From: Amphiscolops sp. MND2022
Taxonomy: Eukaryota
Direction of reading: 5' to 3'
Assembly (NCBI GenBank): GCA_964187785.1
Contig: OZ076409.1
Coordinates: forward strand, 53,942,001-54,006,000
Length of the DNA stretch: 64,000 nt
The position numbers and the translations under genes were made by a program. Numbering within the stretch: the first letter of the stretch is position 1; every line of letters starts with the position of its first letter. Positions 7,627 through 64,000 of the stretch are shown here, piece by piece. The notes under the pieces are model-generated. The model searched no databases and was not told the DNA's origin. It saw only the letters and a program-made list of their open reading frames with translations.

Positions 7627-8672
7627 TGTCATGCCTGATGCACGAGAATGTTGAACTGAGATGTGGTTAACTACACAACATTCAATAGCCGAGACATAAA
7701 ATCAACAAACAGTACATGAACACAGACGAAGGAAAAAGAATGTAGTTAACCAAACCACATCATCAAACTTAAACTCAAACCTTTCAGATGCATCATTTAT
7801 ATTTAGTTTCCAAATGGCTTCGCTCTCTTTCAGCCATAATCATACATTTTCTACATGTACCTTTTATATCAATTTCATGATACATTATATTATTAAACAT
7901 GTAATGTGGGTGACACACCATCACCAGATTTCATTCTAATGCAGCTAACCTCGTAACCAAGGCTTATATTAACCATTAGCTCATACGATGTTGGCAACAT
8001 AGCTATATTGCAATACTAAACGAATATACCAATTGGTGAGTCATGTAACTATAGTAACACAATTACATTATATTTCGGTGCAAGATCAAGCTTAAACTCA
8101 AATTGCGCAATTACTAATCGAGGTGCGAATTACCACCACCATGATACTGCAATGCGATTGGTCGATGTGGTCACGTGACCGACATCGACATACTCAATAG
8201 CAGGTACGAGAGTGCCACCAGTGGAATTTGCGAATTTATAACGTGCAGTTGCTAACCACATTCATATTCGTATACAACTATACTCATCATGCCAATACTT
8301 GAACCCATTTATTACAATAACCCAATGAAACCTCATAAAACTTCGGTATTTTTCCTTTATGGTTAATGCTAGACAACTAAAAACAACCCATCAAGTATGA
8401 ACTGAACAGATAGATACAGTCATGCAGAAAGCGAAGACAGTGTGCCTGATGTTCTAACAAGAGAACAGATAAACGAATTTGATAATGGAGACTTACTAGA
8501 TAATCGAAATGAGATTGAACGACGTACAGTAAATTAAAGGTACCTAGAGATGAACAAACAAATTCCCGAACTGACGAACTTAGTTTTAGTACTAACAGAA
8601 AAGATTTCCTCTAGCAATAGAGAAGGGAACGAACTAAACACGGTCTCAATCGGACATGAGACCTTTCGGACA
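7627..8672 (+). repeat. 5' LTR (~1046 bp) of the decayed sister element
   Basis: TG...CA ends, PBS immediately downstream, start identical to the big element's LTR start; no partner LTR in the window. Confidence 0.7.
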
Positions 8673-10775
8673 TGGTGACAGGAGCCTCAACCAGCAACCC
8701 GCAGACGAACCCACTGCGCCCACCCACATCGCAGTACCCCCAGTCATCCGCCCACCAAATTGACATCGTCACCGAAATCCACCACCTGAGGGATACCATG
8801 ACGGATACAGTACAACATCCGAACATACTACAAACGCAAGTCCCAACTTTCCAAGCAAATTGAGAAAAAACAATGAATTTGAGCACCTTCTGCTCAACCA
8901 TCTCAGGCCACACCAACACAAATTGTCAGAAGAATAGAAACTGACATATTTTCAAAGCCTGTTACGCGATGATGACATTGAATTTTGGCAGCCATTGAAG
9001 ATAACGAATCCGACGACCCTAACACAAGTCTTGCGTTACTTCAAAAAAGAGTACGCCAGTGAGGACCTGAAACAAGTGACCAGACACAAATTTGACCAAA
9101 TGCGCTATGATCCCTCGACCGAGACATTTACCGACTTTCTCAACAATTTTAAACAAGTAGCGAAACCAGCTTTCGGAGACAAATCCAGCAACATAGCAGA
9201 CCTTTTTGTTCGCGAAACTTCCCGTTCAAATGCAGAACGAACTGGCAACGGCGGGCAAACATGACGCCACGATGCAAGAGATTAGGACATTTGTGCAGCG
9301 TAGATGTCAGTATGCACAACTCCTCCTAAAAACAGTCGGTGCGCAACCATTCAACCAAATGAGTGCATCCCAACCAAATGCAGCCACACCTCAGACGTCA
9401 AATACCCAATCCCAACAGAACAGGAAAACAAAGAGAAAGTTCGATGGACAATGCCGTCACTTCGGCATACTTGGGCACAAATGGGCGGAGTGTAGGAAAC
9501 GCCTCCGAGAAGAAGCACCGGCAAAACCCACAAACCAGAATCCACAGCAGACAACCCAATCGAACAAGACTCATGAAAACAGACCTAAATACAATTCAAA
9601 ACTCGTTTGCAAAATTTGTGGCAAGGTGGGACACTCAGCCCGAGACTGTTATCAAAGGAATACGACCAAATCAGCCTACCGAAGCGTCCCGTATCCTAAA
9701 CAGTCAACGGGGGAAAACAAACAGTTCAGAAGGGACTTTCGACAGACCAACAACAGGGTCTACAATACCAACGAACTGTCCCACACCACCAACGACGAAA
9801 TTGACAATACTGAGGAAATGGAACGACACGATGACGTAGAGGACCCAAAAAACTTCTAAAGCCACGTAATCCCCCTCAATCAAACAAAAGTGCGCACCAG
9901 AATCAACGAAAACCGACTAATACTGAAAAACGACTCACACCCCTAAACCACATGGAGTGGCAGTCCTGTCCTTCAACCTACACTAAAGAAACTACAAACT
10001 TTGTCATCACAAGACATTCAGCTGACAACCACACTTTCAAACCGAAAAAAGTGAAACAAAGACCCGAAGTCAACAACATGGAACCATTACGTCCAGACAA
10101 CACAGTGATTGAATTACCGAATGATGATGGACAACCCACATCTCCAAAACCAAACAATCCGCCGAAGGAACCAAAGTACGAAATCCGCCAGTTGAGTGCC
10201 ACCTTACAAGTCAACAGGAAGAACAAGATGTTGTACAAGCCACTTCAATTTCGCGAATACGAAAACTTTGGCCTCCTTGACACCGGCGCAATCCAAAGCG
10301 CACTCTCAGAAGTAGAACTCCGCCGCATTCTCACAGCCCACCCATCCGCCCTTCTCCTAGAACTCCCTGCCCCGGAGTTCAAAGACCAGATCACCAATGG
10401 CAACATCGTACCTGTGCGGAAACAAGTTCTACTACGATTCTTCATCGGCAGCAAAGTCTTCGAAGAAACATTCATGGTTCTCCCGACAAGGGGATCGTAC
10501 TCATCGGAATTTCATTCTTCAAGAAATACTCTTAGCCAACAACACAGTCAAATTCCCGGACATCACCCTCCAACTGCGATCAGTCAACGGGAAATTCAAA
10601 AATAAAAAACTCGAGTTGAAAACAACTCAGAAGATGGTGATCCAACCCCACCAGCAAGTGTTCGTCCCAGTGGTAATTGAACGCAACCTAGGCGACATCA
10701 CTGGTACCGTCGAAGGACTACCCGCTTTCGAGAGACGTTCACATCTGCTGGTATTCCCGGCTCTCGGCGAGACCC
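7627..10775 (+). mobile_element. Decayed, 3'-truncated Gypsy element of the same lineage as the 19 kb element (5' LTR, PBS, gag, protease)
   Basis: LTR starts TGTCATGCC like the big element and ends ..GGACA at 8672, followed by the same PBS TGGTGACAGGAGC. Gag fragments (FEHLLLNHL, CKICGKVGHSARDC) and protease LLDTGAIQSA are clearly homologous to 33350-39945. Confidence 0.9.
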
Positions 10776-20566: not shown

Positions 20567-20576
20567 GTGTGATCTA

Positions 20577-24457: not shown

Positions 24458-25211
24458 CCCAGCGATCGAAAACATGCCAGCTAGCCTTACCAAGATCTTA
24501 TCATGATTTTCCAAGACCTTTCCAAGGATACCATGATTATGCAAGATCGTGCCAAGCGTACCATGTTTTACCATGATCTAGGCAAGGGTGCCAAGATTAA
24601 CCATGTTCTTGACAAGGGTCCCATGATAGCAAAACCGTTTTTTTGGTAACTCTTGTTTTCTAATTCTATTTATTTTTATTGCACCGGTTTCTCTCACATT
24701 CTCGAACTTCAGTAATTTCAACACGTTACCTCAATAGGTGAGGTATTAGCAAGATTAATAAATCATAGCTAGAAAAGTTGGTTTTCACACCGATATCGCA
24801 AACCCGCAAGTTGCAATAACTTGATTCGGAGTTTGCTTTGTATGATAATTTATGATAGTAGTAACGATGCCGTGCTCTCAAGTAACAAAACTCGGTCAAT
24901 AGGTGCAGCAAGTTATTGAGAAGTGTTGTTAACTTTTCAGTTTAAAAAACATTTTTCGATAAATAAAGGTCATGTCCGAAGTTATCACAACGGTTTATTC
25001 AGAAATTGGAGACGACAAGAAATATTTATGAAAAGAATAAATTATACTATTATCCAGCTCACATGTCTTACCATGGTTATCTTGCCATGATCTTGACAAG
25101 CGTTCCATGTATCATGATTAGCCATATTCTTGACAAAGGTACCATGGTTAACCATGATTTAGCAAGATTAACCATGATCTTGGCAAGCGTAGCGTGTCTT
25201 CGATCGCTGGG
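24458..25211. mobile_element. Non-autonomous DNA transposon with CCCAG termini and ~20 bp subterminal tandem repeats (EnSpm/CACTA-like)
   Basis: TA|CCCAGCGATCGAA ... TTCGATCGCTGGG|TA, with arrays of ccatgatcttgccaag-like units inside both ends. Confidence 0.7.
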
Positions 25212-30100: not shown

Positions 30101-33100
30101 ATTGGTGTTTTGTGAACAAAAATTGCCTCAAATTGACCCCGAAAATGACAAAAACTCCAAAACGTTCTGATTTTCAACGTTGTTATGCAAATTTGTCAAC
30201 TCCGCGGGTTAGAATGTTGGAAACGTTCAACAAGGAAAACAGTCGACGTCAAGTAGGCTTTTGTGGAAAGATGGATGCAATTAGTCAGAGAGAAAAATGC
30301 AGTTTTTTCATTGAAAAATGCCTCGAAAAGACACCAAAAATGAAAGTTCCAAAGTTTTCCTGATTTTGTTGGTTTTCATATAATTTAGTTCAATTTTCGA
30401 AATATTTCATTGTTATATTGACAATTTGAGGTTACAATATTTGAGATTAAAATAAATTATTCAACTAGGCTCGCGCACGCTTTCAACAGAGAAATTTGCA
30501 GTTTTTTGGGAGAAAATCACCTAAAACATGCAAAAAAACTCTGAATTCTCAACCTTCTGACTTCTTAAACCGTTGTCTGGATAAGTTTTGAGCTACTTCT
30601 TACTGTGGTTCATAACACTCAGCAGCGACAAAACCTGTTATCCAGTAAGGGTTTTTGAAGGTATAGCAGCATTTTTAAAACTAAGTTTGACTTCAAAAAC
30701 ATTCAAAAGTCAAAAATACCCATAATTTTTTATCCATCTACCAACAATTTAATGGAATAGAACTTCTATTGACCTGAACGTTGCAACAATGGTGTCTTTG
30801 AAATGAAATTTGACAAACAAGGTGGGATCAAACGTTTCGAATTTGACAACAGAAGTTGGGCACTTTCCGGTCGTTTCCTTAACTAGAAATTCCATACGCC
30901 CAGGATTAAATCGTGAAGCTAACGGTAGTGTTTCCAAGAGATATCGGACAAATTATTTCGCAATATTTTTAGTCGGCGCTTTTCTAGTGAAAAAAGCCCG
31001 ACTATTACAGTGGTTAGTTTTTTTTCGTCAGACTTTTCACTCATCGCGTATGTACCACTTTATGTGAAAGATTCACTTTTACCAAAAGTACTCAGTAGTT
31101 GATTTTGAACGCATCCAAAGGCCTCTTCCTTGAAATTCAAAATCCAAAAGGTTCCCCCCTTCCAATTTTTTGGCGCTATGAGACTTTCCCCACCCCTTTT
31201 TCGGCTTTGTGAGATTTTTTTTCGAAGTTTTTAAAGTCTTCAAAGGGTCCCCTTTCTATTTTTTTGGTGTTTTGCACCTGAATGGATGTTGAAAAAGCCT
31301 AAAAAGTCCCCTTTTCTACAATTTTAAAAACTTTGCGCTTTTTGAGTTTTGAAAATGGCGCCGACTTTAGACGTTCCCGTCTTGTTTAAAACTGTATTCG
31401 AAAACGTAATATTCCTTTTCTCACATTGTTTGCGAAAAATTCATTGTTCAATGAGCTCCAGAGCTCCAAACGAAATCACCAGCTGTCATGCCAGCATGAT
31501 GGAAATATAATCTACTAAATATTTGTAATGTAAATATTATGTCTTATGTACTTAGATATGGGCAATATGATGTCATATAATAAGAGCCATGGTTGTGAGC
31601 AACCCTACGTTACTTGTACTTTAACCCCTATCCCCCCTGAGTTTGAGCTATATATATTTACTTAATACTGAGCGCTCTAATTCCGGTGTCCGCACAAATG
31701 ATCTGGCCAATAGCTTTTAATGTGCTATCTTATTCAATATTGGTTTGTCACGATAAGGGAGAGAAGTTTTCCGGTCAGACTGGACCGAGAGATGTAGAAA
31801 TAATGGAGTCTGTAACTTCTACTAGCTCCCTCGCCTCAGGACTTGTAGTCGTGACGAATTTCAGAAAAGTTCATCACTAATCCATCAGCGGACTTAGTGA
31901 TCCTACAACTTGATCTATTAATGAAATTACAGTGCTATATTATCAAGGTTCATCGCAATCACATCGCCAAGATTGCGGGTGAACAAAAATTGGGACTTCT
32001 ATTTGATTTCATTCAGTGATCCATCAGCGGATCTCACGGGACTTTAAAAATACATGAAAAACATCCTATACTCATCGTCGTTTTGTGATTATTAACCTTC
32101 AATGTGCTTCTCATTTCTTAAAAGAGCATAACACATCTATATTTCATCGTCTTGACTAGTAACTACAAGGAATGAGAAAGTACATCCTTAATTCATCCTA
32201 AAAAAGAGTGAAGTGCTGGATATCTGTTTTATTAGATTAACTCATCACTAGTTCATCGTAAATTCATCGCTAGTTCGACTTGCGTTAGAATTAGCCGAAT
32301 TTTCAGTTGAGTTCATCCTAAACTCATCGTTGGAATTTGATTCATTAGATTTTGCTGTTTTATTGAATGTATTCATCCTAAAGTCATCGTATATTTGTCT
32401 TTTTTGCAGAATTAGTTGTTTCACCTGTTTTATCGACTGAATTCATCCTGAATTCATCGTCAATTTCACTAGTGCTGGGAATTAGTTATTTTTCGAGGAG
32501 AGTTCATCCTTTTACCATCGTCGATTTAAATTGTGCTGGAAATCATTCATTTTGAAGACGAGTTCATCCTTTTATCATCGTCAGTTTATATCGTGTTGAT
32601 TTTCGAGCGAAAAGACCACCATTCATCGCATTTCCATCTTTAGGTTTGAAGTATTGATTTTAGTGCTGGAATTAGTAGGAAAACATCGTTTTCCCATCCT
32701 GTGATACAGTTTACTCTGGTTTGACTTGAAATTAGTACATTATTGAATGATTTGAGTTGCTATAGAAACCATGATACTGCGTGCAGGCAATTGCGACATT
32801 GTAAAGTGATGATTAGTCATAATTAGCGTATGTAGATGTACCATGTGGTTTGGCCAACTTGCGGCAGTTCACAACACCGGTCACGTGACTTACCAATTAG
32901 CACCAACTGGCAAAAGCCAATAAGAGTCGGCTGGTAAGAGATTTAGCGTCTTACCAGCCTGAAAAGACACGTGAACTGCTGTAGTTTGGACCGCCATTAG
33001 GGATTACTCAGACCGAAATTACGATTAGCTACTGTCCAGTTGGACGAATTACAACAGATTTGAACTAGAAAACACATCTCTTATTCATCGTAAATAACGC

Positions 33101-36100
33101 TACCTTCACGACTCTGAGTAATTTCTTGATAAATATCCAGCCGATGAAATTTGGATGAACTCTACTTAATCCTCGCTAACTATTTCCCGTTCTTTACTAG
33201 TATCCTTGCCTTACTGTAAAACTCATCGCATTTACATCTCAAGTTCAGAAATAGTGAATTTGAGTTCGAATAACAGCATAAAATAGAAAATACATCGAAA
33301 AATCATCCAGAATCCAGTCTTCACTCATAATTCCTTTTCTCCCACCTCTATGAACCCAGATCTAGGCACTGAACTCAGAAGCGGAAGAATTATTAGTTCC
33401 TCATTAGAAACACCTGTTCCAACGGATCCAGACATGGCTCAGTCCTCTGCCAATGACTCTGATAGTAACGAGACTTCTGATATCTCTTCTCAGTTGTCTG
33501 AAATAAAAGAGAGTTATGAGAGAAAAATAAACGAACTACAGAATGAGTTTAGTCAACTGAAGGACTTAATGATGGCTGTCATAAGTAAGACAGACACCGG
33601 AAACCGACAGTCAACCTCGAAAGGTCCTTCAAAGCCGACCCACACAGTAGGGCTCGACATGGTGACAGGAGCTACAGAAACCCGCTCCAACCGCCCAACA
33701 ACCAGCTTCACCAACTTCAGAAATTACCAAGAAGACGATTCAGACGAAGGAGAATCAACCCCCAGAAGCAATGAGGAACGACTACTCAATGCAATCGAGA
33801 CGATCCCCCAACGGATCAAAAACACAACCACCAACACGAAGCTTCTGCAGACACACGTGCCAAATTTCAGAGGCCAAAAAGACAAATTCGTCGAATTTGA
33901 GCACCTTCTCCTCAACCACCTTAGCCCGCTTGCCAACAAAATCACCGAGGAGAACAAACTACACTTCTTTCAAAGCCTTTTGAGAGATGACGCAATAGAA
34001 TACTGGCAATCCATCCAGATAACGCCAATGACAACACTAAAAGATGTACTCGACCTCTTCAGAAAAGAATTTGCAAAAGAGGATCTAAAGGAAGTGGCCC
34101 GTTACAAATGGGATCAAGCACGCTACGATCCCACAACAGAAACATTCGGCGATTTCCTCAAAAATCTCAAGAAGACTGCCAAACAAGCCTTCGGCAATGA
34201 GGCCGACAGAATAATCAAAATGCTCCTGTTTGGAAAACTGCCAGTCGAGATTCAACAAGAGCTCACCATGGCAAACAAAGAAGAGAGCTCCCCAGAGGAA
34301 ATCAAAACCTACCTAATGCGAAAATACCAGTACCAGCAGTACGTCGCGCCACCTACGGCAATCCAACCATTTAACGCGGTCACCTCCTCAGCACCACCTA
34401 CGATTACAACGACGAAGCCCACAACAACAACAACGACCGCACAACCGACAGAACGAAAACGATTTGAGGGACAATGTTTCTACTGCGGAAAGACAGGACA
34501 CCGCAAAACGGAATGTCGCGCCCGACAACGAGACGAAGCGAACGGCATAAAGAAGGAGGATGCAATCCCAATGAAGAAAGCAGCCGATCCAGATAAGCCG
34601 AAATACAATCCAAAATTGGTCTGCCAGATTTGCGGTTACACAGGCCACTCAGCAAGGGATTGCAGACGACGTGTCCCTAAAGAAAGCAGTTCTGCATATG
34701 GAAAGATTCCATACGCAACGAATTCACAAGATGACAACAGAACTAGAAGACAAGATTTAAAACGACAACAAAAGCCGATGAACCCTATGCAAGCAGTTGC
34801 CGAAGAAGAAGACCAAGAAAGCTACTCTGATGAAGACATAAATCAGGGTTTTTGATTCCGCCACGATTTCCACCCGCTAGAAACACAACGCGCGACCAAC
34901 GACTTTCGACTCAACCGACTACACACGACCGTCCAATGAAGAAATGGCAGCCTTCACTGGACAAACGACCAAAAGCTGACGACGTCTATCAGCGAAGACT
35001 TTCCAACGATGAAAAAGCGATGAGAAATGCACGTCAACTCAACGGCAGCCGCTTTTCTCCACTCGCTGAAATCAAAGATGATCAAACGATGAACTGGCAA
35101 CCAAACACCATGAGGCAGGTGGAAGATGCCAAAGAGATGGAAACCCACCATCTAGACGACGACTCGACTTCACACTCAACAATCGACAAACGGCTTAGTA
35201 TTAAAAAACATGCAAAACAGAGTAGTATTAACGTTTCAAAAGCTAAAAAACATGCAATTAAAACAGAAATTCACGTTCTCAGTCCCACTTTACATTTAAA
35301 CAAGAAAGATAAAATGCTGTACGTCCCTCTTCAGTTTGACAAATACGAAAACAGCGCACTTTTAGACACAGGCGCAATACAAAGTGCAATGTCTGAAGCC
35401 GAATTGCGAAAAATAACAACGGCTCATCCAGAAGCCATCCTTCAAGAATTCCCCCCTCCGAATTTCAAAATTCAAATAGCAAACGGGAACTTAGTCCCAG
35501 TGCGTAAGCAAGTCTTACTTAGATTTTACGTTGCTGGAAAAGTATTCGAAGAAACGTTCCTAATCCTTCCAACAATGGGAACAATTTTAATTGGAATGTC
35601 CTTTTTTGAAAAGTACTCAGTCAACTTAGACATCAAAAACCACCTTGTCCACTTCCCTAATCACATGATGTCTATGCAAGTTAGACAGCAAAAGAACAAC
35701 AGATTCAAAACTGGTTTAATTGATTTGTGTTCCAGTACCAGAACAGTGATCCCTCCTCTCCATCAAGTGATGATACAGGTCCACAGTGACGCGGACATCT
35801 CACTTACAACCGGTACAGTTGAGGGCTCACCTGGATTCATGCGAAAGACGTGTTTGCTTGTTTCTCCAGCTTTGGTTGACCTAGACGAGGGCAAGACGAC
35901 AATCCAGGTCACCAACCCAAACACCCACACGTACACACTTGAAGCTAACACCACTCTGGCACACTTTCGCATCCCGACACCACACCAGGCGGCAAACATC
36001 ACGCCCATGCCAGTGGAACACTTGAATTTGATCACCAAGTACCCAGATGAAGCCGAAGCAGTGATCAACCAACTGTTCGTGAACCCTGAAATGAAGTCAA

Positions 36101-39100
36101 CCAAGTGGTACCCAACTCCCGAGACGTGCAGTGAGCCAGACAAACTCAACGCAATTGAGCGACGGATTTATGATGAGATTCTGGCACTGCGAGAGCTCGA
36201 GAAGCTTGACCCGTCCCAATCCGATGAACAACGGATGAACTTCCTGAAGAACTTCAACTGGGACGACTCGCTTCTTACTCCGTCTCAACGGTTACAGGTA
36301 GAGGAGTTGCTGGTAAAGTACAACTCCATTTTTGCTAGACATCGTTTTGATATTGGCATGAACACTGATTTTAAAGTTGAGCTAACACCACAACATGAAG
36401 AACCTGTTTGTTCACAAAGTCTCCCTACTCCGACAAATTTGAAGGACGATTTGCTCGTGGAGTTAGCTTTAATGCAAGAGTACGGGATTATAACTACTTT
36501 GCCTCACAGCAAATACTCTTCCCCAATATTTGCTCAGCGTAAACCTAATGGTAAATTGAGGATTTTAGTTGACTTGAGAAGAATAAACCACCTGATCAAA
36601 AATGATTACGGTGAGCACAATCATCCCGTAACAACAATTGCTGACGCTGCCCAACACATGGCCGGGAAAAAGTACTTCTGCAAACTTGATTGTTCCCAGG
36701 CCTACCATTGCATTCCAATGGCCGATGAGCAATCTGTCCAACTGTTATCGTTTAATTTTGGATCTAGAACTTTTGCATTTTTACGTCTAGCACAAGGTCT
36801 TAATCGTTCTTTGTCAGCATTTACAGGAGTAATCCGTGAGTATTTGGACCCCTTGGTCAAAGCGGACCGCTGTGCCCAATATGTTGACGATATTGGAATT
36901 GCAGCACACTCACCCGAAGAATTGATTACCAACCTTGAACTTGTTTTTCAACAATTGCACAAAGCTGGTCTTAAACTTAGCATGAGTAAATGTGAATTTG
37001 GACAAAAACAAATTGAGTACTTGGGAAAAACCATTTCTAGCACTGGTATTGCTCCCATTGAAAAACGCGTAACAGACTATTTAACCAAGTTGAAACCCCC
37101 CAATTCAGTGAAAGCGTTGCAACGTTATCTTGGTTTTGTAAACTTTTACAGGTCTTACATTCCCCGTCTAGCTGATAAAACTTGTTGTTTACAGGAACTC
37201 ATCAAGAAAGACGTCCCTTTCAAGTTGAACCAACAACATAAAGATGCTATTTTTGAAATTAATGAAAGTTTGTTAAAAGCAACAAAAGTGTCTCTGAAAT
37301 TGCCACTACCAGATAAACAACTGGTAATCATGTGTGACGCCAGCGAACACGCTGCAGGCTATGTGTTGTTAATCGAGGATTATGCAGACCCGTCAGTCAA
37401 ACATACATACGCCCCTGTTGCATTTGGCTCTAAGAAATTTCAGGGCGGCCAGATGTCTCTAACAATGTATGCCAAAGAGTTTTTAGCTATGCACTTTGCC
37501 TTCGATGAATTTGGCCACATTTTGTGGGGTGCGAAAAAACCCATCATTGTTATGACTGACAATAAGGCCTTGACTAGATTTTTCCAGGCGAAACATATCC
37601 CGCCTTCACTTTGGAATTTTTGCGATCAAACCCTTCAGTTCAATTTTCTATTAGCACATGTTCCAGGAGTTGAAAATCCCGCAGCGGATTACTTATCTCG
37701 GCTTGAGATTAGACCTGAAGATCGTGTACATTTAAAATTGACTGATACTATTCCAATTCACAGGATCGAGATCGACATCGCCTCCCGTACACCAAAACAG
37801 GAGGAGGACGAGCCTGATTACTTCCCCGCGAGCGAACCACTCAGATGCAAACGCCAGAAGGATGTCAAAGAGATGAAATTGGCAACTGGCACTGACGTGG
37901 CTCATGACGATGGGAAAGGGATGAAGTTCACCAACTGTGAGAGAACAGCGGCCTCAGATGACTTCGCGACTGACAACCATCTGACGTACCGCCTCACAGA
38001 CGTGGACGAGCCGATTCAACTCTCGCAATTCATCCGTAAAGTATCATTATCACACCCGGTAATGAGTCAGGTTAGCCCCGCCGAGGGGATCGATCTAATT
38101 CAGGTCCAGAAAAATAACTGGGTGATCCAAAAAATGATTAGATTTTTAGAAGGTACTGAAATTTTGCAACACCCAGTTAATATGCAAGACCAGTTTTTTC
38201 AAAAGTTGTACAAAAATCGAAAACGCCTACAAGTTGTAAACGGTGTCTTGTACAGACAGTTTTTTGATCACACGGGACTAGAGTCTCACAAGCAGTTAGT
38301 CGTTCCTGAAGACTGTATTTTGAAAATAATTAGGACTCTACATAACAGCCCGGTACAAGGACACCCTGGTTTAAAGAAAATGTTGTATGAACTTCGTAAA
38401 AGATATTACTCTCCTAACTTAGCCTGTAAAGTTCAAAAGGTCCTTGACGGATGCGAAAACTGCATGAAGTCTAAAAGTGTAAAAGAAACACAACTTCGTC
38501 CACCGTTACAAAAAATCTACGACCCGTGCGACGGACCAGAAGACCTGTTGGAAATAGACATCGTTGGTCCACTCCCGGCATCGAACGGTTTTACACACAT
38601 TCTGACGGCTGTTGACGTTTTTTCTCGCTACCTGTTCGCCGTTCCGCTGAAGAGACCTGATACACATTCCGTAGTCAGAGGATTACTGTCGATCTTCACA
38701 AAACATGCGTATGTGCCCAAACACATTCTGACGGACAAGGGCACGGCGTTTACGGCTGAACTTCTGTCTGAAATCGCGAAAGCGGCTGACATTCACATCT
38801 CCCATGCCACGATAAAGCACGCGCAGACAATAGGCATGGTGGAGAGAACGCACGCGAAATTGAAAAAGATCCTTAAAATTAGTATAAACGCAGACAGACC
38901 ACAATGGGACCGCTATGTCGACATAGCAATCATGGCCCATAACACGACGTATCATGATTCACTGAAATGTTCACCAACTGAAATTTTCCACGGAAGAACA
39001 CCATACAACTCACTAGATCTGCAATTCAGAAACGCAAACAAACCGGCTGAAACAAAGTGCAAGGACGTGAACGAAATTCTAGACAAAATGAATTTTATCT

Positions 39101-42100
39101 TCAGAGACAATCTAGATAACATCATTTCCGCCTATCACAAGTACAAAACGTACTATGATAGAAAAGCACGAGCTCAGCCACTGAAGGTGAATGAATTTGT
39201 GTTCCTACTAGATCCTAAGTACGACTCTCAGAGAAGCAAAGAAGAGTTTAAAACTTTCCATTGGAAAGGACCGTACAAGGTGATTAAAGTGCTATCCGAT
39301 AGCAACTATATCATCCGCAAAGTAGGCACACACCAAACTCAGTGCGTACATCGCATGCGACTGAGATTGTTCAAACCGGAATTTCCGATTGATGACATCA
39401 ACGTGTCCAAACATCTTTACCCGGACACTGAAAGGGTTGAAGATACGGACATATTCGATTCGAATATTCCGACAACCGACGAAGTAGATCAGAACGAGAA
39501 CGACAATATAGATCAAGACTTAGTCGAAGATGAACCTTCAGCAGAAATAGTTCCACCAGTACAAGAGCGACACAGTCCACAAGTATTTCCACCAGAAATA
39601 ACCACGAGAATAGAATATCAACAAGTAGAAACTGACCACAACAACTTTAGACCACCTATAGTTAGATTTGGAACGCGAGAAGAAATTATTCTACCGCCTC
39701 CCCGCGATGAGAGTAGGATAAGAGTACCTCTGAGAGACGAACAACACGAAAATCAGTCACAACAGCCAAACACGCAAAACGAAGATGAAGAAAGGATGAG
39801 TTCTAGACCGTCTAGATCAAATCAAAGTAGGTACAGGTTACGTGAGAACCCTACACCGAAAACGTATCCAGACTTCCTCATTCATGAGATTACTTCAGCT
39901 AGAAACGCACTGAGAAAGACCAACAAAATAGACGTACCGATTTAGCCAAGAAAAGTCTCACTTTAAATCTGAGATGTGTTACGGATGAACAAATCACAGA
40001 AACGAACGAATTACATGCAATTTTAACTTAAAAAACACATGAAGATGTAAAATGGATGAAAAGTTACTAAAAATCACATGAAAAACGCATACAAACAAAA
40101 CGCGATGTAAAACGGATGGAAAACGATCAAAAAACCAGGAAAAACAACACACAAAAATTTGAGATGAAAAAAGGATGAAACCACATGAAAATTTAGCTCA
40201 GACACACGAGAGATGAAAAAGTGATGAACTCAGTCAAGATTTCGACTAATCTACATGCAACATTTACTAGCGATGCATTTGAGATGGTAAATACCATCAG
40301 AATGCAAACGCACCCACGTTCATGCTATCATAAGACTCTAGCTCGGCTAGAGGATGAAATAGCGATGAACTTGAAACAATTATTCATAAAATACATGAAA
40401 TCAATCAACAAGATGAATTTGTGATGGACACTACCATCAAATCGTGACCGAATTTATCGTTAACCGGACACAATACTCTAGCTTCGCTGGAGGATGTCAA
40501 AACGATGAATTTAGTCTAAATGGAAATTCGAAAATATTAAATGACTTACCAACACCTCCTTGTGATGGGAAACACCATCAACATAACATCACAATAAATC
40601 AGCTAATTCTCAAACAACATGTAACTCCACGAAACGATAAAAAACAACCGACCTTATTCCGAATCATGCAACGAAATTATGCGACACAAAAATGAAATGA
40701 TCAATACATGTAAAGTTCAAAGACCTGCCAAATCAATGACGTCACGAAAGCAATTAACAATTCCAAACTACATGCAATACAAATGAGCAACGCACGGAAA
40801 TATACATGTACCGTTCAAAAATGAATGAGATAATATATGCAATTCACACCAAAACCATCCGAACCTAGACGAATAAAAATGAAACAAACAAACGAAAATA
40901 CATGAAGTCTACTAACTTACATGCAAAATATAAGAACTGACGAAACACCTACAAAACTAATAAAGGAGTGAGCACCACCCCAGTAAACATCAGCTCATAA
41001 CATACAAAACACCCCTATCGAAAAGCTAAAAACATTCCTTCGTGCTGGCTGGCATTTCTCTGAAAAGAGTGCTGGTTAGTTGAGGCGGGGAGCTCACAAC
41101 CATATTCGGATGAAGCTTGCTGCGTTGGTTATCCAGCGGCTAGTGGATTCTCAGTTAGTTTTGTAGGGGCTTTGTGACGACAAAGCCCTGTCCAAATGAA
41201 CGAAAATAAAATTAAAAAACATGAAACTAACACCGAACATATAACGACATGTCAATAATGGGGCAACCCATTTAAAAGAACACATCATGTAACAATCCAT
41301 ACATGCAAATACAAGAAACAGATAGTCTAAAACTGGACACATGCATAACCGTAGTTGTCAATCATATTAATTGATCGGACTGACCGTCAAATGGACAAAC
41401 CCATTTCGACGAATAATGGCAAACAACCAACCGAAAAAATGACATATAGACTATATATAGCCCGAAACTACGAGATTCCATTCATCTGAAAGGAGCGGAG
41501 CAGCTCCACTCACCCAGCTCTGGACTGAAGCCACTAGTACCTCGCACGCCTACAGGCTATCAGTACCACTGCTGAGTGAACCTATTTTCGACTGCCACGC
41601 AAGCGGCGGTCACCAGAATTCGAACTAAAAATACATGCTATGACGTTCCGAAGATGACAAATTAGAAAAATGACGACGATGATCAAAACACATGTACCAT
41701 AAAATTCATGCAAATTCAAAAACACGACAAACGGTTATAACCGTATAACGCTAAAATACATGAAGAAAATACTTCGAAACACCGCAATATTAATAAAAAT
41801 TTCCCCCAGACATGCAAAATGCAACCCCCGATTACGTTATAGCCAAATAACATCGAAAACACGCAAAAATTCATACATTTCAAAACCACGATGAAAAGAA
41901 GATGAACTATACAGCAAAATGAGCAAAAACTTGCCAAGTCAAACTTGCGATGCAAAAACGATGAATTACACCAAAAAACTAGCAAAAATGCAAAAATTCA
42001 AAGGCAAGATGAAAAAACGATGAACTATGTAGAAAAATCACATGTAACAAACATGCAACGAATCGCATATAACAAACGATGTAAAAAAGATGAAAAATCA

Positions 42101-45100
42101 CTTTTCGCGACGTCGCTCGGCCGACCGAGGAAAACGTGATGAAAATACGATGAGAAATCAAAATCGAAGCATTACTGAAATATCTTCACATACACGCGAT
42201 GTCCTAAAGGATGAACAACGTTAGAAAAGAACACATAAGCGATGCGAAAAAGACGACAAATGAAAATAGAGACGCTGAGTACTGCGACCTACAAAAGAAC
42301 CCCATTACCGTAAACCTAACCGACCGCTACCTGCACAATTAATCACTAGTATCTCAAGAGAAAAAATATTCGGGCGCCAAATAATTCTTCTGTAAATACA
42401 ACCTGCCACCGATTTTTCCGACGCAGCAGTTACCCCCCCACCACTTGCAGTGGCACATTGACTTGGTCACCCACTAAAACTATACTATAATGTAATATAA
42501 AGCACTACTTCAAGTAAACGAAAAAATGAAATAAAATAATCCACAATCAAAAGTTCAACAGACTAGAATTCTCAAATCTCCGGACTCGGAGCACGTTCTC
42601 CTTCTTCAGTAAATCCTAGCAGTTCGTACAGGGATTGGCGATAATCCTCGGCAGCCACCACACCGACGTCGTCCCATGGCATGTCGTCCGTTACATCAGA
42701 CAGCGTCGTAAATCGTCCAAATGATTCAGCGATTTCCTCCAAGAAAGGTCCACTGACACTCTCGTATCTCCGTATACGATGAGCCTTGAGAAAACTCAGA
42801 ACACTCGAACACACGCTGGTCGTGATGTCACTCCGTAAATGGCCCACACTACCACAAGGTGTTCTCAGCGGCAAGAGTGGACTCTCGTTCAAGCACATTA
42901 GAAACCTGAACAACCGCTGCGCAGATACACCATCACACGCTCGGAGAATTTCGACAGCAGAACTCGCACTATCTGAAGTCACTCCAGTAGCAATCCGCCG
43001 ATAGTTATCCAAGAATACAGGGAAACTTCTATCCATCCGCCTTTTCTCCACAGCGGTGACTCGTCTCAGCTCCATTAGCAACTCAGTAAACTGTGCAACT
43101 TCCGCTGACAAAACATCAGGATCACAAGACAATAGCAGGGCCGGACAGCAAACGCTCAGATGGAAAGTTACCTCTTCTTTCACTCCTCGTACACTCAAGA
43201 ACTCCTCCACGACCATCAACAGAAAGTCTTTCACTAGAATGACATTCCCTTCAAACACGTCAGGGCGCTCGAAACAGTCCAGATGGGCAGCAAACTCCTC
43301 ACGAAGAGAATTTAACTTGGCATCCGAAACCACTAGCCCATTGAGGTCAATGCACAAACAAGCTCGTACATCCAACACGGCAGGAAGATCTGACTCTTCA
43401 ACGACATAGGACAAAATAGTGTGCACGAAGCATGAACTTTCATATGACCAATGTGCAGTCCTCAGTTCGCAGCCACTGAAGCTCCAACGAAAGGTAGTAA
43501 CGACTAAAATCAAACAAAATTTCATTGAGAAGTGTATATAATAGCCCCCCCCCGCTACAAACACCGACAATCAAACCAAACTTCATAGATAAGTGTATAT
43601 AACAGCCCCCCCTACAAAATAGATTACTAAACATTAAACTGTACATACGAGCACGAAACACCAGCGACAAAGCATGAAGACGAAGAGACACACTAGGGTC
43701 ACCACACAGCACAATGTCCAAAGTGTCAGGCACACCAGAATTACCAGGAACCCTCAGTAGCACAACGATGTCCAACCAATTCGTATGGAGCTCTGTCAGT
43801 ACGTCGGGAACATCCCACAGAGTGACCTCTCCCTCCAGTACAGCCTAGAAAAACATCGAGTTGGATAATAACAATTTACCAAGATCCACCACTCGCCCAA
43901 CTTAAAAGCACACGATCTCCAACAAATAAACATGCAATTAGAAACACTGATATAGAACACATATTCACCTGCAATAGTTTCGGACAAGATAGTAGAACGG
44001 CATCATGCACAAAGTCCTTCAGCCTTGTCTGCAAATGATTAAGCAGTGTATGCACATCAACACCGCCCATAACGCGCACACTCGCGTCAACAAGCACTTT
44101 ATTCAGGTCGCTGATCCGCAGAGGAATGAGTGAAACAGCTCCTAGTCCAGAACCCCTCAACAGCGCACGCTCTAGCCTGGGTAACAAACTGCAGTTGACA
44201 CCAATAGGAGAGACCTGCCCCACAGCACAACAGAGCAAGTTGACCATCCAGGAGACCACACGCTGTTCCCATTCTTGCGAGTAATTGAAGGATAGAACCA
44301 CATAACTTGCGAGTCCCTCCACAGTACACACGCTCACGGTGCCCACCACCCTGTCCGCCACAATAGACACACCAAAACTAGTGAACTCGGTCTCAGTCCA
44401 CAAACTCAGTACTCGCCGCATGACATAGGGCCACAACCCCAAAAGGACCACACTCTAAACATAAAAATCGGAATCATTTAAAAGACATTTAGCTCATTTT
44501 CAGGTACACCCCCAACCCAGAATAACAAAAAAATAAAAGAAAAAACGCCCTAATTGTTGATTACTAGTGCACGCAAAACATGAAACATATCATATGACAT
44601 ACAACACATGAAAATATAATAACCAGTACATCAGCCTCTCGACACGCCGAACCAAACAAAACAGCATGCTGGGAATTCGAAGACACCATCAGGTCCCAAA
44701 GATGACGCACACTCGAGAAATCACAGTCGCGATATATAGCATCCACGACCAGGCACACGAACAGCTTCACACTTTCAACCTGTGCACTGTCGCTCGATGC
44801 GCATATGTCGCCCCACACCGATCTGCCAGTCGCCTCAATCTGTAGAGCCTCGATCACGGTCACATTGGGACATGACTCAACTACCGGCACTGCTTCGCCA
44901 GCTAACGTCGTCGTACATACATCGCACTCAGCTTCGGACATGAGCGTCCCATCCCGTTTCCGCAGTGCGAGCCCACGTCGCAATCGCACCAAGCAATCCA
45001 GACGATGATGCCTCATTCCGCGGCAGTGCTCAAGAAATGTCGTTATGCCGCGGCTACCGATCTTTACATCCTGCTTGCAAAGTAGGCACCGCGCGTACGA

Positions 45101-48100
45101 ATCACGTGTCAGGTGATCTTTTGGAAAACCTAACGCCAATCCACAATAAGCATGGTCGAACCACGCTGACTTGAGAACTTTCCTTCCTGAAATAAAAAGA
45201 AAACAAATCTACAAAAATCATCCTTTCAAAACTGAAAAATGAAAATACCACGAAAAACTTCCAAAAAGTCACCCGGAGTGATGAAAAAATGATGTAAAAT
45301 AATATTTTCATCGGGAAATATAAGCGAAAAACGAAGAGAAAACGAAAAGATGAAAACGAGATGTGTTTGCAGACCACCAGAATGGAAATTGAAACCTTTA
45401 AAGACGAAAACTCGAACGATGAAAAAGAGATGTATAGAACGACTTTAAACCAAATTTGAGATATTCTAGAGCGAAAAACAACTTAACGATGAAAAAGAGA
45501 TGTAAACTGAAAAGAAAACACTGAAAGATAGTGAAAACCGAAAACGAGAAATTTTAAAGATGTAAAAGAGATGGAAAGTGGCTAAAATAGTTAGAATGCA
45601 AGACAAAAGAGAAAAACGCCATGTTTGAAAACTTTTTACGATGAGAAAATGATGAAAAAACATAACTTGCAAAATTGAACAGCGGAAAAAACTAAAACGA
45701 TGGAAAATAGATGAAAAAGACGAAAAATCTGAATTGCTAGCAAAAATGAAAAAAAAGGGAAAATGAATGAATGCAGGTACTGATCAGATACTTCACATGT
45801 TTTAAAGCTGTTTAGGTAACCTGGGAGATGGGAAGCAATTGGCTCATCGTCTGAGTCTAGTAGGCTAGGCCCCATCGGAGAAGTTACTGCAAGCTCAAGC
45901 TCCAGATGAAGTGGAACTGTCTCCGAATCAAGTGCGGCAGACGAGGGATCAGCAATCGTGATGCCTGCTGGAGCGTCAGAAAGAGTCCCTGTGCCGATGG
46001 CAGGATCCTCAGGAATGATCGCCTCAGGGTGAACAGAAGCAAAAGTAACAGTCTGATTGGCATCAGGGGTGAGCAGTTCAGTATCATCGACGACTGGAGG
46101 AGAAGCAGACAGGGAAGTCTCCACCTGGGGTTCATAACATGTGGAACCATCAGCAGTCTCAATAACGGCTTGGACCTCCTTGTCCACAGTATCCACACAG
46201 GCATTCAAAGAAGCGTCACTGCAGCAGACGACAGCATTGACACCCGACTCAATTGTAAGTCGGGGACGGCGTGGACTGACAACTGAGAAAGTTCGCTGCA
46301 AAACCGGCGACAACACCGAAACCGGCGTCCACCTGACTGGAGAACTGGTATCGGCGGCAGACAGATCGTTGAGGAACGACGAGACGTTCAGTTGTGGTGG
46401 CCCTCCGGAAGTGTTGACAGTTACGCCCTCGTCTGGGTAGTCACTGGTCCCAATCCCGATCGAATACACGATGGGACGTGGGACAGGCGCATGAATCGGA
46501 GTAGGGCCTACAAAAAATAACACTCAAACAGAAATGGGCCTGAAAAGAAGAAACAGTTACTGGACGACGACGATTAGAGAAGAAAGAGCGCGTACGCCGC
46601 GCGAAGAAAGAAGACCGGAGAAGAATTCATCCAAAACTCATCTTCAGAAATGGGATTCACAGCGAGATCAGTCATGAAGAGCTGTGAATGTTCATGACAC
46701 ATCCTAAATTCATCTTAAAAATGAATTACATGGGTAATCGACCGCAAAGGACACTACATGCAGATGAGATGTTTACATCGGAATCACATCGGAGTGTTCG
46801 GACGATAGCTTAGAGGAGTGAAAAGGAAATTGACAAATTCACTGTACTGCTGGATGCTGTCCCGCAGCATGTCCCGCATGTGGCGGTCATACCACCCGAA
46901 GGTGATGCTGCCCAGGGAGGCATACCAAGGGTAGTGGTCTGAAACACCGAACGAAAAGGGGTAAGCTACTGGACGAAGTAAGGATGAGATATGAGGGATT
47001 CGAAGACTGAACTGAAGAATGGAAGGATAGTACTTACACTGCGGAAGATACGGGACGTTAGGGGCCTGTTCAATTTGCTGCTCGGGTTGATACTGAGGTG
47101 CGTGAGATGCTGCAGGGATCGGAGCCTCTTGAGGCGGAACTGTCTGCAATGTAGTCAGTTCGGAAATTATGCCGACAGAGTGAACGGAGTCCGCTAAAAC
47201 CAAGACACGCCTTCAATTCCTAATTGTTCCCCGGCCCGTTTGTGAAGAAGAGAAAAATAGTGCACTTACTTTCTGTGGCCTCGGTCTCCGGTAACGAATA
47301 GACGGAATTGATATCCGACATCGCGAAGAATTGCAAAAACAATCTGAAAAGAATGGAAGACGGTGAAAGAAGGAAAGAAATCGAAGAAATCCAGGAGCAG
47401 AGAATTTGATCAGTAATTAAATGGCCTGATCAACCATGATTACAGAAGAACAAATTCAATAGAAGATTTCAAAGAGCGCGACGCAGCTTGAATGCCATGT
47501 TAATCAAACACTTGAATTCAGAAGATGAAAAATCGATGAAAATTCTCCGATTTCAAATACTGACATCACTTTTCTTCCCAGTACAACCAACTCAAGCTTT
47601 CTCTGAAAATGGATCGTCCTCTCCTAGGACTTGACAAAAAACTTCAAGTATTTGATTTGTTGACAGCTGCCAGTCTCAGATCAATACCGACGAAGTTGAG
47701 CGGAAACGCGCGAAGGAAATCGTGGCGATTTTCAAACCGACTTGAATGGAGGATGATTTATGGATGAGAATGCGGCTGACAACCGGTTGTAATTTCCTTC
47801 AGTTATAAATTCAGTCTCAACCAATCAGATCGAGCAACAGTTGCTATGGCGACGAATTCATCTCTTTCTCATCCACTCAAAAGTCGAGCAGCGGAAGTAA
47901 CTTTTGACAGTTGCTATGGCGACGATTCATCTTCTTTCCATCGCGAGTAAACAAAGCAAACGGCGCCAGCCATTCCGCTAAACAGCATCGATGTCTCGCT
48001 GAGCAAACAATTCATCGTTCATTCATCCCGACTCGCTGCCAATTTGTCAATGAAGCCAATCGAATTGTTTATTCAGCGTAGGCGTTTTGGAGGGAAACTT

Positions 48101-51100
48101 TTCTCCGAGAAATCAGCTTCTACCGAAAATAACCAGCCGAAACTCCCGTCAAAAGCATGACAACCAATAAAATGCAGATCAGCGGACATTCGATGGACCA
48201 AGAATTAGAGTTGCCGCGTCGAAAATTTTAACCGAAATCACCCAGGATGATGCCAGAAAAGACGGTTACCGAAGGTCCTCTTCTCAGAGAAGCTCTCACA
48301 GGACAGAACAAACGAAGGACATACCAGTTCAGAACTAACGAAGGCCATTTTTCCCCAACTAAACGAAGGACCAGTCGAAGCCAACGCCGAGACAACCATC
48401 CTCTGCACATTTGGCCCCTGCACTCTCAGTCCAAATCCCGCCCCGGGGAGTGTCATGCCAGCATGATGGAAATATAATCTACTAAATATTTGTAATGTAA
48501 ATATTATGTCTTATGTACTTAGATATGGGCAATATGATGTCATATAATAAGAGCCATGGTTGTGAGCAACCCTACGTTACTTGTACTTTAATCCCTATCC
48601 CCCCTGAGTTTGAGCTATATATATTTACTTAATACTGAGCGCTCTAATTCCGGTGTCCGCACAAATGATCTGGCCAATAGCTTTTAATGTGCTATCTTAT
48701 TCAATATTGGTTTGTCACGATAAGGGAGAGAAGTTTTCCGGTCAGACTGGACCGAGAGATGTAGAAATAATGGAGTCTGTAACTTCTACTAGCTCCCTCG
48801 CCTCAGGACTTGTAGTCGTGACGAATTTCAGAAAAGTTCATCACTAATCCATCAGCGGACTTAGTGATCCTACAACTTGATCTAATAATGAAATTACAGT
48901 GCTATATTATCAAGGTTCATCGCAATCACATCGCCAAGATTGCGGGTGAACAAAAATTGGGACTTCTATTTGATTTCATTCAGTGATCCATCAGCGGATC
49001 TCACGGGACTTTAAAAATACATGAAAAACATCCTATACTCATCGTCGTTTTGTGATTATTAACCTTCAATGTGCTTCTCATTTCTTAAAAGAGCATAACA
49101 CATCTATATTTCATCGTCCTGACTAGTAACTACAAGGAATGAGAAAGTACATCCTTAATTCATCCTAAAAAAGAGTGAAGTGCTGGATATCTGTTTTATT
49201 AGATTAACTCATCACTAGATCATCGTAAATTCATCGCTAGTTCGACTTGCGTTAGAATTAGCCGAATTTTCAGTTGAGTTCATCCTAAACTCATCGTTGG
49301 AATTTGATTCATTAGATTTTGCTGTTTTATTGAATGTATTCATCCTAAAGTCATCGTATATTTGTCTTTATTGCAGAATTAGTTGTTTCACCTGTTTTAT
49401 CGACTGAATTCATCCTGAATTCATCGTCAATTTCACTAGTGCTAGGAATTAGTTATTTTTCGAGGAGAGTTCATCCTTTTACCATCGTCGATTTAAATTG
49501 TGCTGGAAATCATTCATTTTGAAGACGAGTTCATCCTTTTATCATCGTCAGTTTATATCGTGTTGATTTTCGAGCGAAAAGACCACCATTCATCGCATTT
49601 CCATCTTTAGGTTTGAAGTATTGATTTTAGTGCTGGAATTAGTAGGAAAACATCGTTTTCCCATCCTGTGATACAGTTTACTCTGGTTTGACTTGAAATT
49701 AGTACATTATTGAATGATTTGAGTTGCTATAGAAACCATGATACTGCGTGCAGGCAATTGCGACATTGTAAAGTGATGATTAGTCATAATTAGCGTATGT
49801 AGATGTACCATGTGGTTTGGCCAACTTGCGGCAGTTCACAACACCGGTCACGTGACTTACCAATTAGCACCAACTGGCAAAAGCCAATAAGAGTCGGCTG
49901 GTAAGAGATTTAGCGTCTTACCAGCCTGAAAAGACACGTGAACTGCTGTAGTTTGGACCGCCATTAGGGATTACTCAGACCGAAATTACGATTAGCTACT
50001 GTCCAGTTGGACGAATTACAACAGATTTGAACTAGAAAACACATCTCTTATTCATCGTAAATAACGCTACCTTCACGACTCTGAGTAATTTCTTAATAAA
50101 TATCCAGCCGATGAAATTTGGATGAACTCTACTTAATCCTCGCTAACTATTTCCCGTTCTTTACTAGTATCCTTGCCTTACTGTAAAACTCATCGCATTT
50201 ACATCTCAAGTTCAGAAATAGTGAATTTGAGTTCGAATAACAGCATAAAATAGAAAATACATCGAAAAATCATCCAGAATCCAGTCTTCACTCATAATTC
50301 CTTTTCTCCCACCTCTATGAACCCAGATCTAGGCACTGAACTCAGAAGCGGAAGAATTATTAGTTCCTCATTAGAAACACCTGTTCCAACGGATCCAGAC
50401 ATGGCTCAGTCCTCTGCCAATGACTCTGATAGTAACGAGACTTCTGATATCTCTTCTCAGTTGTCTGAAATAAAAGAGAGTTATGAGAGAAAAATAAACG
50501 AACTACAGAATGAGTTTAGTCAACTGAAGGACTTAATGATGGCTGTCATAAGTAAGACAGACACCGGAAACCGACAGTCAACCTCGAAAGGTCCTTCAAA
50601 GCCGACCCACACAGTAGGGCTCGACACCAGCTAAACATTACGTCCTCCAAAAAATCGTTATGCAGTTTCCCAAATAGTCAGAAACCCTCCGAATGACCAA
50701 AAATCAAAATGATTTAGACGTTGTGGTGCAAACTTGTAAATTTTTTGAGCTATTTCGTAAATTAGAATGGTGTAAGCATTCAACAACGTCTGAACTCGGT
50801 ATCCAGTAGGTTTTTAGAAGAGATAGTTTATTTTGTGAACAAATTTACGAACTGACCCCAACGATGTCGAGAATAACAAATTTTCCCACTTTTTGACACT
50901 TCTTGTGACGTTTCGTGGAAATTATTAAATTCTTTGTGTATTACGTACTGGTATCCACATAGTTCAAGAACGAAACAATTAGGCACCTAGCGTGTTCATA
51001 AATTAGGCGTTTCCTCTAGAAATGGGCTGAGATATATCGAATTTGTCTCTTCTTTGAACGTCTATGGGTTTTCAAAGTGCATTTGCTGTTCATGAGTCTC

Positions 51101-60665: not shown

Positions 60666-60707
60666 AGGAAAATCAAAAATTGAATAAAGTTATGCCGGCT
60701 GTATGTC

Positions 60708-61045
60708 TAGAACAAATTGAAAACAAAAAATGAAAAATTTGAAGCAGTCTCTCAGTGTAGAAAAATGTAAAAGGAGGGGACCTTTTGGACTTTTTTGACA
60801 TTCATTTGTTGCAACAAAATTGAAACGGAGGACCCTTTAGTCTTGTCCGGTTCTGTATGTTACGTTAGATGTGGATTAAATGAAAAAAATTAACTTAGAT
60901 GCGTTTCCGCTGGTCGGTCCAGTAGTTTAGTAGTTTCTGTAAAAAGAGTTCAATACGCATAACTTTTCCTATCTGACGGAAAAAAAAAGAAAACATTCGC
61001 ACTGTAACCGTCGCGCTCTTTTTGTTAAAATGCGCCGTCTAAAAA
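60708..61045 (-). mobile_element. Helentron-type repeat copy (partial); near-duplicate at 63648-63985
   Basis: Shares ggggacc, ctttagtc..gtccgg, ggtccagtagtttagt and the actgtaa..gtcg..cgccg.ctaaaa end with 4274-4756. Confidence 0.6.
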
Positions 61046-61362
61046 CGACTCAGGAGCAAAGTTACGATTCGGGATTTCTCTAGTGTGAACCTCAAAATTA
61101 TGTCTTGACACAATCTGACAAGCCAGCGGTTTGTATAAAGCGAGATGAATCCTCAATGCGGGACAGATATAGTACTTTCTCTTCGTGAAGTCTAAAAGAT
61201 TTGTAGGGTTTTTGAAAAGAGTGAAATACTCCGTCTTAGTGAAGAATCGGTTTAGCTGGTGGGTTTGCATAGTATCCACTAGTCATCTAAGACTGGTCAC
61301 AGCCATGGAATTGGTAGAGAAGCTACAGAGAATTTAACTTAACAATGAAGTTCGAGCACTGT

Positions 61363-61364
<2 letters not shown>

Positions 61365-61424
<60 letters not shown>
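61365..61424. repeat. (CAG)20 microsatellite
   Basis: 20 uninterrupted CAG units. Confidence 0.97.
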
Positions 61425-61425
<1 letters not shown>

Positions 61426-63985: not shown

Positions 63986-64000
63986 ACTCAGGAGCAAAGT

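Follow-up and report, generated by a model that had tools for sequence, protein, structure and literature searches.

Can a retrotransposon carry both a sequence-specific DNA-binding regulator and the sites at which that regulator acts? The question is raised by a 64,000-bp stretch of the 1.07-Gb genome of Amphiscolops sp. MND2022 (assembly GCA_964187785.1, contig OZ076409.1, positions 53,942,001 to 54,006,000), called the window throughout. It holds a complete Ty3/Gypsy long terminal repeat (LTR) retrotransposon with an additional antisense gene, the cargo, which encodes a zinc-finger protein. The LTRs, introns and spacers of this element are tiled with one dyad, CATC-N7-CATC. A first-pass annotation had proposed that the protein is a finger-intact, catalysis-dead, hAT-like binder acting on the arrays of its own family. 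We observed that the gene is conserved by selection, and that finger and motif change together between related clades. Overall, we see an about even chance that the cargo is a self-targeting DNA-binding regulator of hAT-transposase origin, probably one that activates the element or counters its silencing in the way of VANC or TnpA.

The borders claimed earlier for the element, 31484-50626, turned out to be exact. The two LTRs (31484-33659 and 48451-50626) are 2176 bp each, differ by seven mismatches and no indels (divergence of 0.3%), and have TG..CA ends; a CCAGC target duplication flanks the element on both sides. The gag and pol frames are both open. The gag frame upstream, the pol order of protease, reverse transcriptase (RT), RNase H and integrase, the paired LTRs, the short target duplication and a purine tract place it in Ty3/Gypsy. 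All 150 RT matches listed were 99-100% identical (25,929 first-look candidates of all RT kinds), and the family is young and abundant. The features of the element are as follows.

31484..33659, plus strand: 5′ LTR, 2176 bp, 17 dyads on the plus and 1 on the minus strand; the gag frame starts inside it
33287..34855, plus strand: gag frame, 522 amino acids (aa) from stop to stop, with CCHC knuckles
33660..33672, plus strand: putative primer-binding site, directly after the 5′ LTR
34834..39945, plus strand: pol, 1703 aa, protease-RT-RNase H-integrase, 8 dyads
39946..42571, minus strand: non-coding spacer between pol and cargo, 14 dyads on the minus and 1 on the plus strand
42572..43503, minus strand: cargo exon 8, helical; its homologue from a second clade (B, see below) was modelled onto Hermes residues 367-583
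43649..43844, minus strand: cargo exon 7, placed by splice-site conservation and open frame
43969..44454, minus strand: cargo exon 6, whose strand and helix pattern, as read by eye, suggests an RNase H-like core
44624..45186, minus strand: cargo exon 5, C-x2-C-x16-H-x5-H finger followed by helices
45187..45820, minus strand: intron 4, 7 dyads on the minus strand
45821..46507, minus strand: cargo exon 4, acidic, rich in Pro, Ser and Thr, the fastest-evolving part
46508..46842, plus strand: intron 3, 3 dyads on the plus strand
46843..47321, minus strand: cargo exons 1-3 (47321-47270, 47193-47038 and 46938-46843), with the ATG at 47321
47322..48450, no strand assigned: region upstream of the cargo, likely its promoter, 5 dyads, closed by the short purine tract just before the 3′ LTR
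48451..50626, plus strand: 3′ LTR, 17 dyads on the plus and 1 on the minus strand

The gag frame begins within the LTR (33287-33659; counterpart in the 3′ LTR, 50254-50626) and runs through the putative primer-binding site, so that the first ~100 gag codons are also present in the 3′ LTR and in solo LTRs; clade-B LTR ends start similarly. The primer-binding-site word also follows an older sister LTR at ~8674, and no tRNA or Rfam match was found in the window.

We first consider the motif. It is a direct repeat and not a palindrome. The element contains 74 dyads, 18 in each LTR, 8 in pol, 15 in the pol-cargo spacer, 10 in the cargo (all intronic), 5 upstream of the cargo and none in gag, and the 44.9 kb of the window outside the element contain none, which bears out the tiling described earlier. 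When one LTR was counted, 56 dyads were observed, whereas 200 simulations of a third-order Markov null averaged 1.5 and never exceeded 5. Among the plus-strand CATC words of the LTR, 33 of 34 lie within a dyad. The spacers are T/A-rich, and 55 of 56 are distinct. In 18 diverged relatives, with the sites defined on the window copy, the aligned cores are 96.9% identical, compared with spacers at 76.3%, flanks at 71.5% and the remaining non-coding DNA at 79.2%. The gaps between successive dyads are also ordered: 37 of 40 are ≤90 bp and cluster at 48-49, 59-61, 69-72 and 79-81 bp (phasing R of 0.79 versus a null maximum of 0.44). This phasing fits a protein sitting on one face of double-stranded DNA, and double-stranded DNA is the probable target because dyads occur in both orientations and their gaps step by about one helical turn.

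In pol, six of the eight dyads fall in the pre-protease, pre-integrase and C-terminal linker stretches; dyads at 35022-35139, 37875-37923 and 39798 lie in linker regions and are encoded by codons of the Asp-Glu/Asp-Asp-Met type. The array is missing from 20 unrelated integrase-bearing loci, which have 0-5 dyads per 10 kb as against 32-49 in the family of the window element (clade A); the five are those of an inserted clade-A LTR.

The cargo lies antisense between pol and the 3′ LTR (47321-42572) and is read as eight exons and seven introns with a single open frame of 1055 aa; the finger exon singled out by the first-pass annotation (45186-44624) is its exon 5. Of the splice combinations tried, twelve left the frame open, and the one with the best-conserved sites was chosen; each of the 14 splice sites is retained in at least 18 of 22 aligned copies. 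With the exon-4 donor placed at 45792, the frame was interrupted and dN/dS was near 1 downstream, and the conserved donor at 45821 was taken instead. The dN/dS against 21 relatives (near-identical exon pairs set aside) indicates purifying selection on every exon of the cargo, strongest on the 75-aa finger (0.03-0.07 where dS was measurable; 0.07-0.28 elsewhere). The gene is present in all 20 sampled relatives with 73-83% finger identity, some of them with deletions, and at least 25 of the first 30 RT-identical copies have an antisense finger exon 6.6-8.2 kb away. The finger ligands (Cys at 45088 and 45079, His at 45028 and 45010) are intact in 89 of 93 pattern-matched loci (94 examined), as had been claimed, and the C-x2-C-x16-H-x5-H finger is nearly invariant over 36 diverse rows. 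The putative recognition residues are Thr and Thr, at 45043 and 45040.

Cargo alleles are mosaic, since an identical RT is paired with finger exons of 56% to 100% identity. Four loci (L048, L049, L050 and L086) have LTR, gag or N-terminal exons near-identical to those of the window element together with finger or C-terminal modules only 56-74% identical. This exon-level mosaicism suggests frequent recombination among clade-A subfamilies. No A/B hybrid element was found among the 94 finger loci.

Does the motif change when the finger changes? Starting from a distant homologue, P0061, we reached a second large clade, B, of the same genome, represented by nineteen 10-kb regions with the same layout and LTR start word and with shorter LTRs. 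The clade-B fingers are 26-41% identical to that of the window, and pol is related (integrase 58-59% in two extended regions). These elements contain 0-2 clade-A dyads and carry other dyads: inverted sites of the ATGT-N13-ACAT type in B1 copies and of the ATGACTG-N7-CAGTCRT type in B2 copies. The footprint is the same in both, 21 bp, inverted and with 7 bp at its centre, and only the inner bases distinguish the two. The suggestion that related families with a different finger would have a different motif was thus confirmed.

From the counts of A, B1 and B2 sites, we observed that loci with the helix SRGITTF (61 loci) contain 1075, 5 and 0, those with GRGLSSL (16 loci) 5, 64 and 3, and those with GRGLHNL (14 loci) 6, 6 and 27; all six B1 sites of the last group lie in a neighbouring LTR outside the element at L113. 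Three single-locus helix variants agree with their clade. Twelve of the 19 B elements were tested against the null, and in all 12 the cognate class exceeded the null maximum. The motif class follows two helix residues, TT in A, SS in B1 and HN in B2. They stand five and four positions before the first His and match the base-reading S66/N67 of the Hermes BED domain, and a near-invariant Arg of the helix matches Hermes R63 (PMC10368747). Clade-A copies whose exons are only 56-58% identical to those of the window (L083-L088 and L114) keep both helix and motif, whereas B1 and B2, at similar exon divergence, differ in both. The window has its own control for this comparison:

7628..8673, plus strand: decayed clade-B1 sister LTR, with ATGT-N13-ACAT type dyads and no CATC-N7-CATC

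This LTR belongs to a decayed clade-B1 element (7628-10938) with a broken gag and the start of pol; its gag is 39% identical over 187 aa to that of the main element. Elsewhere (G000 C1:55531779-55575623), five clade-B finger exons lie ~10.4-11.6 kb apart as a tandem run of elements. At L100 the cargo is duplicated in inverted orientation, with B2-type dyads in the spacer.

A dense, family-specific motif in an element's own non-coding DNA, and a motif that diverges with the protein between related families (three classes, with L100 as a partial exception), are both features of a self-targeting regulator, and both are present here. From these sequence comparisons, it is probable that the finger protein binds its own dyads.

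We next considered the nature of the protein. Its exons 1-4 encode an acidic stretch rich in Pro, Ser and Thr; the N-terminal 330 aa contain 43 Asp/Glu and 10 Lys/Arg and may resemble activation domains. The finger has CC-HH/HC ligands placed on a hairpin and a recognition helix, as in BED fingers, although the hairpin-helix arrangement comes from a low-confidence model. A profile of the 36 finger rows searched against PDB placed the ZBED2 BED finger first of four matches, weakly (E=0.022). For the last exon, a model was built on a clade-B1 copy (52-row alignment, pLDDT 68, residues 21-200 mostly high). Compared with 48,161 chains, it had Hermes in fourth place: model residues 1-229 aligned collinearly with Hermes 367-583 (Z 5.0, rmsd 5.8, 156 residues), the longest alignment of the 50 rows shown. 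Exon 6, by eye, has the pattern three strands, helix, strand, helix, strand. Acidic residues common to both clades occupy three columns in exon 6 and seven in exon 8, and none in the putative strands 1 and 4. This predicted topology points to an RNase H-like core in which the strands expected to be catalytic bear no conserved acids, and the description of the protein as catalysis-dead would follow from the same prediction. Because the order and size of the domains agree, a hAT transposase that has lost catalysis is a likely fit.

Other searches added little. Fold searches with the finger-exon model (low confidence, pLDDT 56) were uninformative, and the finger-exon homodimer prediction scored 0.25 against a mark of 0.32. 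Foldseek with re-alignment of the exon-8 model gave nothing, Pfam Dimer_Tnp_hAT had no match in the last exons of clade A or B, and single clade-A exons matched no Pfam family. PDB sequence searches returned no match for the clade-A finger and exon-6 profiles and just three, at chance level, for the exon-8 profile. ESM Atlas had no usable match, and the searches gave no longer homologues of the cargo. No RNA record carrying the cargo was listed, which speaks neither for nor against its expression. The host genome has hAT transposases of its own. Outside it, homologues are unnamed fragments (84 matches in one search set and 66 in another); more distant clades are known solely as protein fragments (P0043, P0048, P0053 and P0055), and no related locus was found in viral or metagenome contigs.

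Several observations weigh against a hAT-derived binder of its own arrays and have to be set beside the above. The hAT evidence is weak overall: besides the E of 0.022, only 6 of 36 rows match Pfam zf-BED at E≤1 (best 0.013), the finger stays under the family's cut-off (13.7 versus 20.6 bits), and the Hermes Z of 5.0, at an rmsd of 5.8, is tied with unrelated helical bundles. The three clades make two independent contrasts on the tree, and many of the loci are almost the same copy; some co-variation is also expected from the physical linkage of cargo and LTR. The patterns for B1 and B2 were drawn up once the data had been seen, the clade-B arrays are sparse (3-9 per 10 kb), and L100, with its B1 helix, has three sites of the B2 type within 10 kb, one inside the tested span. 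The ~11-bp steps of the gaps could also arise by slippage between half-sites. Finally, the CpG observed/expected ratio of 0.79-1.23 in element and flanks indicates no depletion, which makes a VANC-like action on DNA methylation doubtful; the silencing opposed is more likely histone- or small-RNA-based. Of the original proposal, the family-specific binder gains from the comparative results, the purifying selection and the absence of arrays at unrelated loci, and the hAT-like part stays with two collinear but weak matches, to the ZBED2 finger and to Hermes in the last exon.

In the mechanism that we propose, a hAT-type transposase would have given up cutting while retaining a BED-like finger and a multimeric scaffold. 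Each CATC half-site, one helical turn from the other, would be read by a finger of its own, the 4-bp core beside AT-rich DNA corresponding to the binding mode of Hermes BED. Dense phased arrays would mark every copy of the element's clade, and the spliced antisense product would bind them as a multimer and keep or make the integrated element transcriptionally active, either as activator or as anti-silencer. The acidic N-terminal 330 aa may be the effector, feedback on the cargo's own promoter is possible, and the antisense orientation would let the introns survive reverse transcription. We favour activation or anti-silencing because of the element-wide and promoter-proximal placement of the dyads, the acidic N-terminus and the success of the family; as the effect of the protein, we hold it to be evenly balanced.

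The alternative that survives best is that the arrays are host transcription-factor sites, with a different factor for each clade, and the cargo has another function. Host-factor sites commonly vary between LTR families, linkage alone would yield clade-wise co-variation, and a GATG/CATC-like core is common to all three motif classes. We nevertheless regard it as unlikely, for B1 and B2 share one footprint and change only the inner bases in step with the two-residue helix change, and the motif tiles introns, spacer and pol linkers beyond the promoter and is missing from the host flanks.

A protein that binds the same dyads and instead represses or limits the element, through copy-number control, exclusion of competing copies or timing, would be served equally by all the binding-related evidence. 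Antisense retroviral regulators and truncated transposase repressors exist and provide precedents. The youth and abundance of the family (the RT identities and LTR divergence given above) and an acidic N-terminus of the kind seen in activation domains make repression improbable.

The protein may also act on linear cDNA or the pre-integration complex, in nuclear import, end pairing or tethering to target chromatin, and not in transcription. Half of the dyads are in the LTRs, and in native hAT elements the BED domains assemble the transpososome by binding subterminal repeats (PMC10368747). This role seems rather improbable, as 38 of the 74 dyads are internal, the LTR array starts ~390 bp from the left end and several dyads are found upstream of where the cargo itself begins. 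An origin of the arrays as by-products of ~60-bp unit duplication or slippage, or as RNA pairing signals between oppositely oriented LTR and internal copies, is very improbable and already disfavoured: TRF finds 60-70-bp units at ~2 copies in the LTRs and there are short inverted similarities between LTR and internal arrays (best E 0.004), but the cores outlast the units (97% versus 72-76%), the spacers are nearly all different, and arrays stand in non-homologous places including coding linkers.

How does an activator or anti-silencer of this kind compare with known systems? The cargo parallels them in working or in place, and is not placed in any of their families. VANC of the Arabidopsis VANDAL elements (Mutator-like), for which a MAIN-related origin has been proposed (PMC13547354), is encoded by the element and has a dense, short, family-specific motif in non-coding DNA that includes its own introns and differs between related families (PMC5735166). 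VANC belongs to a plant DNA transposon and acts on DNA methylation (PMC5735166), whereas the present element is an animal LTR retrotransposon whose motif is a spaced dyad, whose BED/hAT-like protein is predicted to bind it, and in which CpG is not depleted. TnpA of Spm/CACTA is a transposase-derived, catalysis-free, sequence-specific activator on dense clusters of its cognate motif, and its motif classes mirror element phylogeny (bioRxiv 10.64898/2026.08.24.746577), much as for our candidate. As that study describes it, TnpA stays in its own DNA-transposon superfamily, whereas here a transposase-like gene sits in a class I element; "retrotransposon" and "LTR" do not occur in the study's main text. 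General Pfam scans of the cargo, made in place of a direct comparison, returned no VANC or TnpA family.

Plant Gypsy elements of the Retand, Grande and RIRE2 type have, as the present one does, a conserved antisense gene between pol and the 3′ LTR, with repeat arrays in the region; for the Grande frame, an own promoter and nuclear location are reported, and DNA binding and a regulatory role are suspected (PMC11963269, PMC7264820). Their product contains a TRP28 domain of unknown origin and, in the portions of those papers used here, no target motif is described, whereas this cargo has seven introns and a candidate target motif and no Pfam match to TRP28 (Transposase_28). Foamy viruses have few response elements. 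Their Bel1/Tas protein directly binds elements in the LTR and internal promoter and activates them (PMC517496), which resembles the candidate target sites in the LTR here; Bel1/Tas is encoded on the sense strand, in a retrovirus. The Hermes BED domain reads a 4-bp site beside AT-rich DNA in pairs, with S66/N67 reading bases (PMC10368747; PDB 8EDG). Cargo and Hermes would share, in the same order over ~725 aa, the finger, helices, a probable RNase H-like core and a helical insertion region. Sequence similarity to Hermes and ZBED2 (PDB 8EDG, 2DJR) is very low, and the cargo differs from Hermes by its extra 330-aa acidic N-terminus, the lack of an evident catalytic triad and its place inside a retrotransposon.

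The window contains other features. An intronless 1401-aa RGS12/14-like frame (PDZ, RGS, two RBD and a weak GoLoco) at 14439-18644, of a kind that indicates an animal genome, is followed by a LINE-like element at 19664-23450 with open ORF1 and endonuclease-RT frames. Degenerate tandem units of 30-40 bp occupy 24502-25187, and nested hairpin-like inverted repeats of 47-54 bp 28994-29306. A tandem array with a ~1.17-kb unit fills 55745-64000; a ~55-bp word of this unit recurs in dispersed repeats at 4274-4360 and, inverted, at 31301-31387. Among the loci of other families, L051 (1578-4880) has an integrase-bearing element followed by a 1101-aa opposite-strand open reading frame (ORF) without a Pfam family, and L052 an opposite-strand Gypsy pol with a dUTPase domain and seven GACC-N3-GGTC dyads. 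Twelve loci (L054-L056, L060, L061, L063-L066 and L068-L070) have an integrase followed by several long same-strand ORFs, which we take to be a Maverick/Polinton layout.

In the literature searched, with most subscription papers, Repbase and supplements outside its scope, we found no description of an LTR retrotransposon that combines a DNA binder of hAT origin with arrays of its cognate motif. The conserved antisense extra genes of LTR retrotransposons are described, in the parts of these sources used here, as of unknown origin and function (PMC7264820, PMC11963269). Self-encoded, sequence-specific counter-silencing was known from plant DNA transposons and direct LTR activators from foamy viruses; the present case adds candidates for the origin and for the target, together with three natural protein-motif pairs within one genome. 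It is real, unusual and directly testable, a candidate for the transposon-encoded self-targeting type of regulator in an element class and an animal for which we found no described case, and the function of such antisense genes becomes a simple cross-binding question. It would bear on the way in which a retrotransposon family can evade silencing while its neighbours stay dormant, and may offer a compact programmable DNA-binding scaffold. With chances that we see as equal on either side, an animal Gypsy lineage captured a hAT transposase and made it its own sequence-specific activator or anti-silencer, with coexisting clades forming orthogonal protein-motif pairs in which the bases read depend on two finger-helix residues, and the choice between direct and inverted geometry on the scaffold. 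If true, this would be a hand-over of a regulator from class II to class I elements and a natural recognition code for BED fingers.

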